The notes under the pieces are model-generated. The model saw only the letters and a list, made by a program, of their open reading frames with translations. It had not been told where the DNA came from and did no database searches. Both the position numbers and the translations under genes were made by a program. From the NCBI GenBank assembly GCA_937888435.1, contig CALAQS010000351.1:1942-65941 (forward strand): a DNA stretch of 64,000 nucleotides, written 5' to 3'. Of the stretch, positions 56,169-64,000 are shown in pieces (positions within the stretch are counted from its first letter, which is position 1; each line of letters begins with the position of its first letter). This DNA comes from an uncultured Acidobacteriota bacterium. Lineage in GTDB: Bacteria > Acidobacteriota > Thermoanaerobaculia > UBA5066.

Positions 56169-57086
56169 ATGCGTGAAGAGCTGAGCCGGATCGATCTGTC
56201 CCCCATCGCCGACCTCGTGCGGATCAAGAAAGAGGAGCAGCTCCTCGCGGAGCGCCTGAAGAGCATGGAAATCCGCGCGGAGAAAGTGTCGTCGGCCGTC
56301 TACGAGCGGGTCCGAAAGGACTACGAGACGAGGCGGTTGGCGCTCGAGCAGGAGTCGCGGCCTCTCAAGGAGCAGGCGCGCCGTGAGTACCGGCGGCTTC
56401 AGGCCCTCCGGCGCGAGGTCGAGCAGGCTGTCGAGGCCGCGTCGTTCGACAAGGAGGAGGTCGAATTCCGCCGTGAGCTCGGCGAGCTCCCGGACGGCCT
56501 CTACAAGGAGCGGATTGCCGCCTGCGAGAAGCACCTCGCCGACGAACGCCAGGATCTCGAGGCGGTCCTGCAGATGAAGGCCACGTTCCTCGACGCGTTC
56601 CGGTCCGAGGAGGACCTCGAGACGCCGGACTCCGGCTCCGAAGGACCTGCTCCTCCGGCCCCGCGGCCCCCCGTGCGACCTGCGCCTTCGGCCCCGCCGG
56701 CCCCCTTTCCCGTCGAGAACGTCATCAAAGCGCCGCCTCCGTTCGAGAAGGCGCCTGCCGCGGCCCCGCCCGAGCCCCCGGACGCCACGGTCGTCCTGAC
56801 GCGGGCCCGCCTCTCGCTCCTGGACGGGGACAGGATCGCGAAGGAGTTCCCGCTGAAGCCCGGTGTCTCCATCCTCGGGCGCCTCGCTCTGAGCGACGTC
56901 CATCTGCCGACCCCCGACGTGTCGCGCAAGCACGCGCAGGTGATCGTCGGGCCGTCCGGCGTGTTCGTGGTCGACCTCGAGTCGGAGAACGGCGTCGTCG
57001 TGAACGGCAAGAAGGTGGACAAGGTTCAGCTCGTGGAAGGCGACGTGCTCACGCTCGGCAAGCAGCGGCTCGTCTTCCACGACTGA
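56169..57086 (+). CDS. FHA-domain protein with N-terminal coiled coil and Pro-rich linker
   Basis: 305 aa. The C-terminal FHA domain is SILGRLALSDVHLPTPDVSRKHAQVIVGPSGVFVVDLESENGVVVNGKKV...GDVLTLG. The N-terminal 150 aa are heptad-like and charged. Confidence 0.8.
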   Translation: MREELSRIDLSPIADLVRIKKEEQLLAERLKSMEIRAEKVSSAVYERVRKDYETRRLALEQESRPLKEQARREYRRLQALRREVEQAVEAASFDKEEVEFRRELGELPDGLYKERIAACEKHLADERQDLEAVLQMKATFLDAFRSEEDLETPDSGSEGPAPPAPRPPVRPAPSAPPAPFPVENVIKAPPPFEKAPAAAPPEPPDATVVLTRARLSLLDGDRIAKEFPLKPGVSILGRLALSDVHLPTPDVSRKHAQVIVGPSGVFVVDLESENGVVVNGKKVDKVQLVEGDVLTLGKQRLVFHD

Positions 57087-57152
57087 CGCCGCCCGGATCG
57101 CGCCGCCCCCGCTTCTTGACGGCGTTACCGCGGAATCCGATCATCCCGATCA

Positions 57153-59297
57153 GTGCAAGAGCCTGAGGGAATCGAGACCGCGCGACTTCTGCCGCCGGTG
57201 GGGGCGAATGCCCCCTTCGGCCTGCACCTCCTCCTGGATGTCTCGGGCGAAAGCCGTGAGCGGTCGCCGTTCGTGCGACTCTCGGAGTCCGACGACCTCG
57301 CGCGCGTCTTCCTGGCCGCGGTGAAGGGGGATGACGGCACCCTCCTCGAGCTTTGTGCGCTGAAGCTGATGCCGGACGCCTGGCCGGACGGCGTGACGCC
57401 GGGCGCGCTCGACATGACGAACCGCGATCTCGAGGACCGCTGGGACAGAGAGAAATCACGTCTCGTCGACCTGCGTGCGCTGTCGTCGCACTTCCCGCGC
57501 CTCATCCGCCTGGACGCCCCGGCGGGAAAAACAGCGGACCGCCTTCCACCGCTCCTCTATTCGCGTGCGGGGCGCTCGTTCTTCGTCCCGCCCTGCCCCG
57601 GCTGCAGGAGCCCGCTCTCGCTCTGTCGCGACGAGGCGTGGCTCGCGCGCACCGGCCTCCCGTCCTTCGCCTCGTCGCGGGAGCGCTTCGTCTGGTGCGA
57701 AAGCTGCGCCAAGGGACCCGGGGCGCCGACGGTTTACACGACGTCGCGGATCAGCACGCCGGGCGCTACCGTCCGCTCCGCCACCGACCTTCTCGACGAC
57801 CTGGGCCACGCGCTTCGCGAGGTCTGGACGGAGGAAGAGGCAACCGCCCTGGTCGGCACGGAAACCGCAAAGGCGGTGCGCTCCCTTCCCGCGGCCGCGG
57901 CTGGCGGCGCGAGCGCCCGGGATCTCTTCACGCCGCTGACCTTCTACGGGTCGCCCTTCCTCGTGACCGTGGCGGCCCCCCTCGACCTCGAAGCGCTCGC
58001 CGATGCGCTCGGCGGCCGGCCCTGGGAGGAGTTCGAGGTCCGAAGTGCAGGCACGGGCGGAGGGCTCCCCACGCGCTGGGCGTGGCTCGTGAGGGCGCCT
58101 GCGCCAACCCGACGGCTCCTCTTCGCTGAGGAGAGCTCCGGCCTCGATGCCGTCGAGATCTTCTTCCTGAAGCTGACCGCGTTCCGCCAGATCCTCGAAG
58201 GCCTCATCGACTATTACCGGGCCGCCGGACGCCCGCACCTCGACCTCCACCCCCGCCACCTCCTCTTCGAGCTTTCGGGAGCCGGCGACGGCCTTCCCCT
58301 CTTCTGGACGTTTCAGGCGCGGATCCACGGCCTGGCCGCAGCCGCGGTGACGCTCCCCGCCCCGGGATCGCCGTCGGTCGTCCTGCCCGGACAGGGGCTG
58401 GCCATTCCCTATGCGGCCCCCGAGATCCAGGAGTTCCGCCTGGCCGGATACCGGCCGTGTGAGCTCGTCTTCACCGACCTCGACGAGGACGGGACGGGAT
58501 CGCGGCGCTTCCGGCTCCGCGGCCGCGTCTCCGATGCGTACGGCCTCTATCCCTCGCCGCAGCCGCGCGACACGATCTTCCTGTCGGTCCCGGACCCGAC
58601 TCTCGACCTCGGCTTCACCGGCCTCGCCGTCCGGGCGACGCCCGGAGAGATCCGCTCGGACGAGGCGGCGTTCGCGAGCGACCTCGTCGCACTCGAGGAG
58701 AACGGCCTGCGCCGTCTCCGCCTCGCGCTCGGCACGAAGATTCCCGGGGCCCGCTATCGTGTCTTCCCGGATTTCGGCACGCCGAGCGACCTGCACGCTC
58801 TCGGCGTCTCCCTGCTCCGCCTGCTGCTTCGAAACGACGGCCAGGATGTCGCCGCCGTCCTCAGGGCGGCCGACCGGCTCACTCGAGAGGTCGCGGCGCT
58901 CGGGCCCGGCGAGGCCCGGCGGAACGTCACGCTCGCCACACTCCTCAAACGCGTTCCGGACGCGGCGCCCGTTTTCTCGAAGACGCAGATTTTCTGGGGC
59001 CATGACGACCGCCGCGCCGACCGGCCGAATGCCGTTCCGGAGACGCTCTGGGAACGGGCGGTCCTCCTCGCGCTCCGCCTCGTCACGCGCGTCGCGGGCT
59101 TCTCGGTCGCGGCCTCTCCCGCCGACTTCGATCCGCTCTTCCGGGAAGAGAAGCTCGAACGGATCGTCCCCGAGGTCGTGTCGCTCCTCGCCGAGCTGCA
59201 CTCTCTCCTCTTCGAGCGACAGTCGGTGCATCTCGAGATCCAGCAAGTCCTCGCCGAGATCCAGGAGAGCGAGCGTCTCTCCGAGGCGCGCCCGTGA
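57153..59297 (+). CDS. Cytoplasmic protein-kinase-fold protein with degenerate catalytic motifs (predicted pseudokinase) and a Cys-rich insert
   Basis: 714 aa with a GTG start. Kinase-like landmarks are LCALKLM (VAIK-like, K71), DREKSRLVDLRALSSHFPRLIRL (helix C / HPNIV-like), GRPHLDLHPRHLLF (HRDLKPxN-like, 362-371), ARIHGLA in place of DFG, YAAPE (APE) and PSDLHALGVSLLRLL (subdomain IX). The Cys insert is CPGC..C...CESC (148-185). No TM segment. The coding call is confident; the functional call is inference. Confidence 0.6.
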   Translation: MQEPEGIETARLLPPVGANAPFGLHLLLDVSGESRERSPFVRLSESDDLARVFLAAVKGDDGTLLELCALKLMPDAWPDGVTPGALDMTNRDLEDRWDREKSRLVDLRALSSHFPRLIRLDAPAGKTADRLPPLLYSRAGRSFFVPPCPGCRSPLSLCRDEAWLARTGLPSFASSRERFVWCESCAKGPGAPTVYTTSRISTPGATVRSATDLLDDLGHALREVWTEEEATALVGTETAKAVRSLPAAAAGGASARDLFTPLTFYGSPFLVTVAAPLDLEALADALGGRPWEEFEVRSAGTGGGLPTRWAWLVRAPAPTRRLLFAEESSGLDAVEIFFLKLTAFRQILEGLIDYYRAAGRPHLDLHPRHLLFELSGAGDGLPLFWTFQARIHGLAAAAVTLPAPGSPSVVLPGQGLAIPYAAPEIQEFRLAGYRPCELVFTDLDEDGTGSRRFRLRGRVSDAYGLYPSPQPRDTIFLSVPDPTLDLGFTGLAVRATPGEIRSDEAAFASDLVALEENGLRRLRLALGTKIPGARYRVFPDFGTPSDLHALGVSLLRLLLRNDGQDVAAVLRAADRLTREVAALGPGEARRNVTLATLLKRVPDAAPVFSKTQIFWGHDDRRADRPNAVPETLWERAVLLALRLVTRVAGFSVAASPADFDPLFREEKLERIVPEVVSLLAELHSLLFERQSVHLEIQQVLAEIQESERLSEARP

Positions 59298-63080: not shown

Positions 63081-63756
63081 CAACAGCACGACCGACCTGT
63101 TCCGGGTCTGCTCCCGCCTCTTCCTGTTCCTCAGCTCGTTCCGGCAGAAGGTCCGCCGCGGCGTCCGGCTCGAGCCCGACGCCGTTGCCGCCGATCTCGA
63201 GGAGATCTTCGACGAGCAGGCGCGCGCCGCCCGGAGCGACCCGCGGCTCGACGCGCTCTACGAGAAGGCGCGGTACCCGCTCGTCGTCCTCGCGGACGAG
63301 ATCCTCCTCCATTCCGGCTGGGACCACAGCGCCGAGTGGGAGCAGCACCTCTTCGAGGAGAAGTACTTCAAGACGAACATCGGCGGCGACCAGTTCTTCT
63401 CGATCGCCAAGGACCTCCGTCCCGACGACGTGGAGCTCGCGGCGATCGTCTTCACCGGGCTGGCGCTCGGTTTCCGCGGCAAGTACCGCGAGCGCCCCGA
63501 GAAAGCCGTCGAGATCAAGAACCGCGTGTACCGCCTCCTGGCGGAATACCTCGCGGACGTGGGCGAGAAGATTACTCCCGAGGCGTATCACGTCACGGCG
63601 GCGCCGGCGCGCAAACTTTCTCCCGCGGTCACCCTCGCGCGCGTGGCGATCGTCGGCGTGGGCATCCTCTTTCTCTACTACGCGATCACGTGGCTCATGT
63701 GGGCCCGCTCGGTCGACGAGCTCCGGACCGTGGTGCAGGCGATGGGGCTGATGTAG
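63073..63756 (+). CDS. tssL: Type VI secretion membrane subunit TssL (DotU family)
   Basis: 227 aa. The DotU pattern is ARYPLVVLADEILL...W....L....F....GGDQFF, then AIVFTGLALGFRGKY and a single C-terminal TM (VAIVGVGILFLYYAITWL). It overlaps the tssK end by 8 nt. Confidence 0.85.
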   Translation: MDSNSTTDLFRVCSRLFLFLSSFRQKVRRGVRLEPDAVAADLEEIFDEQARAARSDPRLDALYEKARYPLVVLADEILLHSGWDHSAEWEQHLFEEKYFKTNIGGDQFFSIAKDLRPDDVELAAIVFTGLALGFRGKYRERPEKAVEIKNRVYRLLAEYLADVGEKITPEAYHVTAAPARKLSPAVTLARVAIVGVGILFLYYAITWLMWARSVDELRTVVQAMGLM

Positions 63757-63759
63757 ACG

Positions 63760-64000
63760 CCATGCAAGAGTTCCTCTCGCTGCTCCGGGGGCTTCCGCGG
63801 CCGCTCAGGTACCTCGGCGCCGCCCTCCTCTTTCTCCCCCTCGGCTACTTCCTCATCCGCCTTCTCGGGCTCGAGAAATACTGGTGGCTCTTCCTGCTCG
63901 GACTGCTCGTCGTCCTGGCCGCGGTCCTCCTCTTCGAGCACCTGCGCAAGGGCCGTGAGAAGCAGAAGGGCAAGGCGTTCGAGGGCGAGCTCCGGAAGGA
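63760..64000 (+). CDS. tssM: Type VI secretion membrane subunit TssM (IcmF family), N-terminal fragment; continues beyond the window
   Basis: Not in the ORF track because there is no stop in the window. The ATG at 63760 lies 3 nt after the tssL stop. The translation is MQEFLSLLRGLPRPLRYLGAALLFLPLGYFLIRLLGLEKYWWLFLLGLLVVLAAVLLFEHLRKGREKQKGK, giving two N-terminal TM helices as in TssM. The call rests mainly on position and topology. Confidence 0.6.

Follow-up and report, generated by a model that had tools for sequence, protein, structure and literature searches.

A kinase-like protein encoded beside TagH at the 5′ end of a type VI secretion cluster from soil and peat Thermoanaerobaculia

The stretch of DNA analyzed here (the window) comprises 64,000 nucleotides of contig CALAQS010000351.1, from an uncultured bacterium of the Thermoanaerobaculia (Acidobacteriota). 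At its final part, positions 56169-64000, begins a complete T6SS(i) cluster (T6SS, type VI secretion system) with a canonical core, of which this is the 5′ end; the source is a soil/peat member of that class. Ahead of the genes for TssJ, TssK, TssL, and TssM lie the genes for a 714-residue orphan protein, which we call p714, and for a forkhead-associated (FHA) protein resembling TagH. We propose, at a probability of roughly 0.6, that these two proteins make up a post-translational control module, in which p714 would be a degenerate kinase homolog that serves TagH as a pseudokinase partner and gates T6SS assembly.

A check of open reading frames (ORFs) on the sequence showed that seven closely packed ORFs on the plus strand fill this region:

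56169-57086, plus strand: FHA1, 305 aa, with an FHA domain (PF00498)
57153-59297, plus strand: p714, 714 aa, an orphan, Hanks-kinase-like
59294-61234, plus strand: TagH-like FHA protein, 646 aa, with an FHA domain and a sub-threshold T6SS_FHA_C match
61240-61713, plus strand: TssJ, 157 aa, by fold match only
61710-63080, plus strand: TssK, 456 aa, with PF05936 and TIGR03353
63073-63756, plus strand: TssL (DotU family), 227 aa, with PF09850
63762-64000 (window end), plus strand: N-terminus of TssM, first 79 codons, by identity to a full-length TssM

Start and stop codons overlap as GTGA at 59294 and 61710, and a further 8-nt overlap spans 63073-63080, all of them read in the sequence; the remaining intergenic gaps in the run are 66, 5, and 5 nt. 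The G+C content of the window is ~68%, and all seven ORFs have a coding-type G+C content at third codon positions (~0.82-0.93). Independent gene calls on six metagenome contigs with an identical TssL (L001-L006) returned the same seven genes at the same lengths. An earlier note on this DNA had described seven co-directional, tightly spaced genes with these overlaps, and all of these observations agree with that description. Its coordinates need only one small correction, in that the start codon of tssM is at 63762, and the gene order it gave is correct, as judged from hidden Markov model (HMM) matches for the FHA proteins, TssK, and TssL, and from the predicted fold of TssJ.

The pairing of p714 with TagH became apparent when the window was compared with contigs that carry more distant homologs of p714:

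L031, p714 75% identical: FHA1-p714-TagH-TssJ-TssK-TssL-TssM-TagF
L032, p714 65% identical: FHA1-p714-TagH, the contig ending inside tagH
L030, p714 56% identical: p714-TagH-TssJ-TssK-TssL-TssM, no FHA1, the contig ending in tssM
L028, p714 43% identical: p714-TagH-TssJ-TssK-TssL-TssM-TagF, no FHA1
L023, p714 40% identical: p714-TagH-TssJ-TssK-TssL-TssM-TagF, no FHA1

The genes further upstream are unrelated among these loci, and p714 adjoins tagH in every Thermoanaerobaculia cluster of the p714-TagH-tssJKLM type that we examined. Overall, family members preceding TagH and TssJKLM span identities of 40-90%. The TagH-like gene always lies between p714 and tssJ, upstream of tssJ-K-L-M, in the loci examined, and in the window its start overlaps the stop codon of p714 (GTGA). 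In Planctomycetota, the two are found as a single protein. When the 150 best-scoring representatives of the p714 family are ranked by length, the top 12 include five p714-FHA fusions, each with a p714-like N-terminal part of ~700 aa; four of these (P0184, P0203, P0225, and P0226) go on with both an FHA and a T6SS_FHA_C domain (E-values for the latter down to 3.6e-11), and the fifth (P0223) has an FHA domain and no T6SS_FHA_C match. All of the named fusions come from Planctomycetota. P0203, which aligns to residues 39-651 of p714 at 28% identity (E = 4e-33), is encoded in a Planctomycetota genome (L064) directly 5′ of a 175-aa ORF, tssK, tssL, tssM, and tagF, that is, at the same locus position as the p714-TagH pair; the 175-aa ORF is TssJ-sized and has no Pfam match. 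Taken together, the fusion, the translational coupling, and an adjacency that is conserved in two phyla point to a joint function of p714 and TagH, which is the best-supported of our proposals.

The same comparison placed the first gene of the run, FHA1, outside the conserved module. The earlier note had raised the possibility that a triad of FHA protein, kinase-fold protein, and TagH is conserved beside tssJKLM; this holds for the kinase-fold protein and TagH, and for all three only in the closest clade. FHA1 precedes p714 only in relatives whose p714 is at least 65% identical (L031 and L032) and is absent where that identity is 56%, 43%, or 40% (L030, L028, and L023), whilst its own homologs, at 34% and 43% identity, lie in non-T6SS neighborhoods, which rules it out as a conserved triad member. 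It also evolves faster, with 49-53% identity as against 95% for TssK in L031. The protein is soluble, with no hydrophobic segment; in it, a helical/coiled-coil region at the N-terminus is joined through a Pro-rich linker to the FHA domain at the C-terminus (PF00498, E = 6e-15, residues 236-297). We infer that FHA1 is a clade-specific, recent recruit from a general coiled-coil-FHA family. A sigma-70-like sequence, TTGACG-17-GATCAT, at 57116-57144, within the 66 nt that separate FHA1 from p714 (one found versus 0.0 expected from shuffles; a consensus match only), would fit the view that FHA1 was acquired separately and may be transcribed on its own.

p714 itself had no Pfam, NCBIfam, or PDB sequence match, and scans of 41 family members with HMMs at E ≤ 10 returned zinc-ribbon-like matches only. 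Its relationship to Hanks-type kinases is supported by four independent, individually modest lines drawn from sequence profiles and a structure model. In an AlphaFold2 (AF2) model (pLDDT 83, pTM 0.84), the secondary-structure elements are predicted to follow one another as in a protein kinase, from a five-strand N-lobe with an αC-like helix, through αE, a catalytic loop, and an activation segment, to helices αF to αI. Foldseek comparison of this model with kinases gave TMt values of 0.53 (TYK2), 0.43 (ULK1), and 0.43 (IRAK4), none of them significant (E > 0.07). When a p714 profile was searched against the PDB, all 22 matches were Ser/Thr kinases (E 0.065-1.4), aligned at αE with HRDLKPxN and at the DxWSxG helix (helix F). 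An hhalign comparison of the family with four Hanks kinases, three of whose sequences were entered by hand and aligned with all canonical invariant residues in place, gave a probability of 89.6% (E = 1.9e-6) over 69 columns covering αE, the HRD loop, and APE; HLDLHPRH falls opposite HRDLKPxN, and PYAAPE opposite the APE motif. In addition, three family members gave sub-threshold Pkinase matches at the catalytic loop (E 7e-6 to 6e-4), and one family cluster, which has the full canonical residue set, includes a member named "serine/threonine protein kinase" by JGI.

Added to the kinase-like core in the model are two inserts, a zinc ribbon of the form CxxC...CxxC (C148/C151/C182/C185) and a beta-barrel of ~100 aa that separates the APE motif from helix F (about residues 437-540), and the C-terminal part of the chain forms a long helix (666-711). 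No convincing transmembrane segment was seen, and p714 is taken to be soluble. The top Foldseek matches of the whole model, to Sen1/Setx helicases and glycine receptors, were dropped, as their TM-scores are ~0.1; FAD-binding/SIP beta-barrels were matched over no more than ~110-125 residues, probably on account of the insert domain. Prompted by the GGDEF and EAL genes nearby, we also considered that the beta-barrel might be a PilZ domain that binds cyclic di-GMP (c-di-GMP). This was rejected, given that there is neither a PilZ HMM match nor a properly spaced RxxxR...DxSxxG motif, and that the GGDEF and EAL genes found upstream of the cluster are not conserved neighbors.

The catalytic positions of p714 can be read against those of canonical kinases. 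The relevant motifs are K71 in β3, P-H-L-D364-L-H366-P-R-H369 in the catalytic loop, I-H-G393-L-A at the DFG position, PYAAPE (419-424), and D546-LHALG551 in helix F. The β3 Lys (K71) and the HRD Asp (D364) are kept; H366 stands in place of the catalytic-loop Lys, H369 in place of the Mg-binding Asn, and G393 in place of the DFG Asp, and no Gly-rich loop (GxGxxG) is visible. In a 41-member alignment, K71, the CxxC...CxxC pair, P-H-L-D-L-H-P-x-H (361-369), PYAAPE, and D546...G551 are nearly invariant, and 39 of the 41 members of the clade to which the window belongs have K-D-H-H-G at the five catalytic positions. Across the family, the full canonical set (ALK ... HLDLKPEN ... IDLA) is kept in only 6 of 141 representatives; elsewhere the catalytic positions have decayed in many different combinations, and the TagH-fused forms have lost the HRD Asp. 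Varied decay of this kind is what characterizes a pseudokinase family. The description of p714 in the earlier note, as a soluble kinase-fold protein without key catalytic residues, is supported by the lack of a transmembrane helix, the kinase-like model, and these degenerate positions.

The assignment of its partner as TagH-like combines domain matches with gene position. The N-terminal FHA domain is clear (PF00498, E = 3.1e-10, residues 34-102), and a Pro-rich linker is present. The C-terminus matches T6SS_FHA_C (PF20232) at 17.2 bits against a cut-off of 23.7, and the match recurs at the same place in all five orthologs (E 0.0014-0.05); the E-value with TIGR03354 is 0.042. Although curated cut-offs are unmet, an FHA domain, a reproduced sub-threshold T6SS_FHA_C match, and the constant position ahead of tssJ together indicate a TagH-like protein. 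The FHA domains of both FHA1 and TagH keep the Arg/Ser/His/Asn residues that bind phosphothreonine, as read from the translations (GR, SxxH, and NG in FHA1). A Clp_N-like stretch was also observed just after the FHA domain in TagH orthologs (window 59700-59900, residues ~130-200; L028:12385-14352, residues 150-197, E = 9e-4). ClpV binds the sheath through its Clp_N domain.

In the known pathway of T6SS control by threonine phosphorylation, the phosphate on Fha1/TagH or TssL is put in place by PpkA, a kinase bound to the membrane, and removed again by PppA, and TagH is sequestered by TagF (PMC13584744, PMC3953482). We envisage that p714 would fill the place that the membrane kinase PpkA has in the P. 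aeruginosa pathway, acting as a scaffold or sensor of the pseudokinase type that is non-catalytic, or at most atypically catalytic. It would bind, hold, or present TagH and so gate the recruitment of TagH to the TssJLM/TssK complex, or the TagH-dependent assembly of that complex. A cytoplasmic signal might enter through the zinc-ribbon and beta-barrel inserts, and TagF, encoded after tssM, would be the brake or antagonist. Because the phosphothreonine-binding residues of the FHA domains are intact, a phospho-ligand is still to be expected. Candidates are p714 itself or the N-terminus of TssL, where the motif STT[DE]LF invites an analogy with the phosphorylated Thr14 of Agrobacterium tumefaciens TssL. 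Such a ligand might be phosphorylated by a kinase encoded elsewhere (compare the Pkinase-PEGA gene that lies beside a p714 homolog in L029) or by a residual, non-canonical activity of p714.

One point against a pseudokinase role is the conservation of K71, D364, and the three catalytic-loop histidines, which are near-invariant over the 41 members of the clade and could mean that p714 is an active, non-canonical enzyme. As a soluble equivalent of PpkA, it would then phosphorylate TagH and/or the TssL N-terminus by means of K71, D364, and H362/H366/H369, with a different coordination of the metal. Also in favor of such an atypical kinase, both FHA domains retain the residues that bind phosphothreonine, and TssL has its conserved Thr motif; some family members do retain every canonical residue, one of them being in the cluster with the annotated Ser/Thr kinase, and the T6SS cluster encodes no other kinase. 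We nonetheless regard it as unlikely, since both Mg-binding residues are replaced (Asn by His, and the DFG Asp by Gly), the catalytic-loop Lys is a His, no Gly-rich loop can be seen, and the varied decay across the family, which extends to the HRD Asp in forms fused to TagH, is the pattern of dispensable catalysis. We think it quite improbable that regulation instead takes the form of ordinary threonine phosphorylation by Hanks kinases and PP2C phosphatases encoded elsewhere, with p714 as a structural or positioning accessory, for example of the sheath or baseplate, that has no signaling role. Thermoanaerobaculia are rich in Hanks kinases and SpoIIE/PP2C phosphatases (window 32382-33482; the neighborhood of L065; the Pkinase-PEGA gene of L029), and TagH without a cluster-encoded PpkA is known from Vibrio (PMC13584744). 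However, the FHA fusion in five representatives (four with T6SS_FHA_C) and the constant adjacency to TagH tie p714 of the main lineage to a regulator and not to the sheath, and its kinase-fold descent, with active-site residues partly retained, suggests a signaling or allosteric role. That p714 has nothing to do with the secretion machine, and is an effector, an immunity protein, or a passenger gene at the cluster edge, is very improbable indeed: it lacks an HMM annotation, sits at the 5′ border, and has a most distant homolog that is not T6SS-linked, but its position and translational coupling are conserved over 40-100% identity despite different upstream neighbors, it is fused in frame to TagH in another phylum, and the VgrG, PAAR, and adaptor genes sit at the opposite end of the cluster.

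Several further results weigh against a dedicated pseudokinase-TagH switch. No single line of the kinase evidence for p714 is significant alone: the whole model had no Foldseek match at E < 1e-3, and no family member scanned reached the Pfam cut-off for Pkinase. In L021, L022, and L029 (Thermoanaerobaculaceae), a p714 homolog with 31-32% identity stands beside a TssB-TssC-like fusion, and not TagH, so that the role of the family may not be tied only to TagH; this arrangement also favors the idea of a sheath-related accessory. The most distant homolog (24% identity) has no T6SS genes near it on its short contigs. Finally, for the ~1,300 family members, linkage to T6SS genes was sampled at only 11 loci, one of which has the TssB-TssC-like fusion as its sole such neighbor and another of which has no T6SS gene nearby.

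These 11 distinct loci (L001, L031, L032, L030, L028, L023, L064, L029, L037, L021, and L025) include nine that are T6SS-linked, and six of the nine have the p714-TagH pair beside tssJKLM genes. The size of the family comes from a profile search of 1.84 billion representatives, in which 1306 members were found at E ≤ 1e-3 and 713 at E ≤ 1e-30, a member being a representative cluster at 50% identity. A word-indexed search returned 104 p714 clusters, all of them "hypothetical"; those with a named source are metagenome-assembled genomes of Thermoanaerobaculia/Acidobacteriota, except one labeled Acidithiobacillales. The family is seen in Acidobacteriota and Planctomycetota and has no Pfam or NCBIfam model. 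We tentatively suggest, as a possibility that falls somewhat short of an even chance, that it constitutes an unrecognized, widespread class of T6SS accessory (~1,300 clusters), an obligate pseudokinase-TagH module that would act as a PpkA-independent cytoplasmic switch of the T6SS, with the inserts as signal inputs.

In the Thermoanaerobaculaceae loci, the p714 homolog lies 7 nt 3′ of the fused TssB-TssC-like ORF of 593-594 aa (L021:8210-12109, L022:349-4167, and L029:8212-14081). The pair stands alone beside transposase genes in L021 and L022; in L029, a gene with Pkinase and PEGA domains follows the p714 homolog, and there is a divergent TssB-TssC-Hcp-TssE-F-G-ClpV block. These arrangements suggest a second, sheath-related context for the p714 family.

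Downstream of p714 and TagH, the core proteins were identified to different degrees. TssK, the baseplate subunit, is unambiguous (PF05936, E = 4.9e-83; TIGR03353, E = 3.3e-82, 276.9 bits against a cut-off of 100). TssL matches the DotU family of Pfam (PF09850, E = 3.4e-28, 99.1 bits against a cut-off of 27) and falls slightly under the cut-off of NCBIfam TIGR03349 (E = 3.5e-24, 85.8 bits against 89.95); it is a short form with a single C-terminal transmembrane helix (hydrophobic segment 182-211). Its extreme N-terminus (window 63073-63110) reads [V/M]D-S-x-S-T-T-[D/E]-L-F, and this is kept in the Thermoanaerobaculia orthologs examined, being reduced to TAELF in L028. The first 79 codons of tssM are 100% identical to the beginning of a 1459-aa ORF with an IcmF-related_N domain (PF14331) on contigs L001-L006, and the TssM ortholog in L009 matches PF14331 at E = 5e-64; two hydrophobic segments are present in the N-terminus (windows at residues 17-63). 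Across the Thermoanaerobaculia clusters that we examined, TssM has 1403-1464 aa (for example, 1459 aa at L001:10690-15069), versus 1145 aa in the Planctomycetota locus L064, and Pfam detects only IcmF-related_N in these proteins.

TssJ required a different approach. Neither the window protein nor four orthologs (five proteins) matched PF12790 or any other Pfam or NCBIfam model. The protein has a signal peptide and a lipobox Cys30 that is invariant in the orthologs. An AF2 model built from 31 homologs (pLDDT 82) gave Foldseek matches of which the best 14 in the PDB were all TssJ/SciN/Lip/IglE (E 8e-7 to 7e-4, TMt 0.57-0.79), among them SciN/TssJ of enteroaggregative E. coli, Lip of Serratia, TssJ1 of P. 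aeruginosa, and IglE of Francisella. Judged by its predicted fold, the 157-aa ORF is a divergent TssJ outer-membrane lipoprotein beyond the reach of HMMs. The earlier note had named failure of HMM searches to assign TssJ, TssK, TssL, and TssM as grounds for doubting the locus; TssK and TssL (by Pfam) were assigned in this way, and TssM through its relatives, whereas TssJ was not and was rescued by its fold only.

The remaining core genes, which had been predicted to lie downstream, were found on other contigs. Those with an identical TssL go on with TssM, TagF (PF09867), two Hcp genes, and one minus-strand gene, and the tail of L002 is 98-99% identical in nucleotide sequence to contig L037, where the order is TssM-TagF-Hcp-Hcp-TagJ(-)-TssA-TssB-TssC-TssE-TssF-TssG-ClpV-VgrG. 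In 12 Thermoanaerobaculia/Acidobacteriota genome assemblies, the genes follow one another in the same way up to ClpV, within which the retrieved loci stop, and VgrG is seen in the loci that extend beyond ClpV (L037, L033, L034, L035, and L040). The Pfam matches of these core genes (TssA, TssB, TssC, Hcp, TssE, TssF, TssG, ClpV, and VgrG) are all far over cut-off, so the prediction is borne out in a contig 98-99% identical to the population of the window and in 12 related genomes. After VgrG come cargo-type genes, namely, a papain-fold Gln-amidase toxin-like ORF, a DUF2169 gene, and a PAAR-like toxin domain. The earlier note had not foreseen TagF, the canonical brake on TagH, which is encoded just 3′ of tssM: PF09867 matches a 385-aa ORF at this place in L001-L003, and TagF is also found in all relatives. 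The TagF proteins (337-412 aa) reach far past the TagF_N domain.

The population that carries this cluster is a widespread soil and peat Thermoanaerobaculia population: the 50000-64000 segment is nearly completely present (0.71-0.98 of sampled words in 20 runs) in soil and peat metagenome runs of several studies and in four runs labeled metatranscriptomic. Contigs of these four runs are spread evenly over 50-64 kb, across divergent genes and intergenic DNA as well, which may be DNA carry-over.

Upstream of FHA1 lies a divergent, minus-strand block of c-di-GMP and two-component genes (51397-56054), and beyond it unrelated housekeeping genes. The block comprises:

55551-56054, minus strand: MerR
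54446-55753, minus strand: GGDEF protein, with a C-terminus that is PilZ-like by eye (RRGALAEVHDISYGGLAF)
53132-54436, minus strand: histidine kinase
within 51397-56054, minus strand: response regulator
51397-52944, minus strand: EAL protein

This block is not kept beside the cluster in the relatives L031 and L032. Because the upstream neighbors differ in relatives, we take 56169 to be the cluster border. When 30 upstream ORFs from 1-56 kb were scanned with Pfam, no T6SS gene, PpkA, or PppA came up, apart from one unlinked SpoIIE phosphatase. No Pkinase match was obtained among the scanned ORFs, which are a subset of those in the window, or in related clusters, and neither the window nor its relatives have a PP2C gene in the stretch from FHA1 to the genes that follow VgrG. 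The SpoIIE/PP2C-type phosphatase (32382-33482, minus strand) is the sole gene for Ser/Thr phosphosignaling among the scanned ORFs elsewhere, 23 kb away and with unrelated neighbors. The earlier note had held that canonical PpkA and PppA are absent and have been replaced by other proteins. None was found in the cluster, and the first part therefore stands; replacement, on the other hand, can only be inferred, as kinases and phosphatases may be encoded elsewhere. Further upstream, an IstB-like AAA ATPase (16987-17721) beside a 393-aa ORF without a Pfam match (15966-17721, minus strand) may be a remnant of an IS21-type element, or a divergent one.

The locus resembles the H1-T6SS of P. aeruginosa (PpkA/TagE, PppA/TagG, Fha1/TagH, and TagF) in that a kinase-fold protein and TagH are encoded with tssJKLM in the order fha-tssJ-K-L-M, with TagF as a second regulator and with intact phosphothreonine-binding residues in the FHA domains. 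It differs in that p714, unlike PpkA, is soluble, has neither a transmembrane helix nor a periplasmic sensor domain, stays below the Pkinase HMM cut-off, is missing the Lys and Asn of the catalytic loop as well as the DFG Asp, and has zinc-ribbon and beta-barrel inserts. Also unlike the H1-T6SS, clusters of the window type have no PP2C phosphatase and no TagQRST genes, and the kinase-like and TagH parts are one protein in Planctomycetota. We know of no description of PpkA and Fha1 as a single protein. In A. tumefaciens, the pathway runs from PpkA through TssL phosphorylated at Thr14 to Fha (PMC3953482). TssL of the window has its N-terminal Thr motif, STT[DE]LF, at a position resembling that of Thr14, which makes it a candidate docking site for FHA, but it is a short form that has no peptidoglycan-binding domain, and clusters of the window type encode no active PpkA.

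TagH-bearing T6SS clusters without PpkA and PppA are known, for example, from V. cholerae (reviewed in PMC13584744). As these too have no canonical activating kinase, the absence of PpkA and PppA beside TagH is not unusual in itself; what sets the present clusters apart from those of the V. cholerae type is a kinase-derived partner that is dedicated to TagH and encoded alongside, or fused to, it. The use of a degenerate kinase fold as a non-catalytic part of a secretion machine, as predicted for p714, has a parallel in YukC/EssB, a pseudokinase component of the type VIIb secretion system (bioRxiv 10.1101/2020.05.09.085852). The parallel is one of fold, and YukC is a membrane protein of that system, whereas the p714 family is T6SS-linked and FHA-coupled. 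A kinase-derived partner of, or fusion to, TagH was not found in Pfam, NCBIfam, a 2026 review of T6SS accessory genes, or the literature that we searched, of which our coverage was incomplete. We regard p714-TagH as a variant of the control module based on threonine phosphorylation and FHA.

What is understood of how T6SS firing is controlled after translation comes almost entirely from the PpkA-PppA-Fha1-TagF pathway of a few Proteobacteria, and many TagH-bearing clusters have no known activator. The T6SS cluster described here is an ordinary one in an under-studied phylum, and what stands out is its accessory p714-TagH module. T6SS annotation tools miss the p714 family because there is no Pfam or NCBIfam model for it, and they also miss the divergent TssJ, so that automated pipelines would score such clusters as incomplete. 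The fusion in Planctomycetota leads to the testable prediction that p714 and TagH form a physical complex. The locus points to a second solution to the control of the T6SS in abundant soil phyla, in which a kinase-derived partner is genetically welded to TagH.

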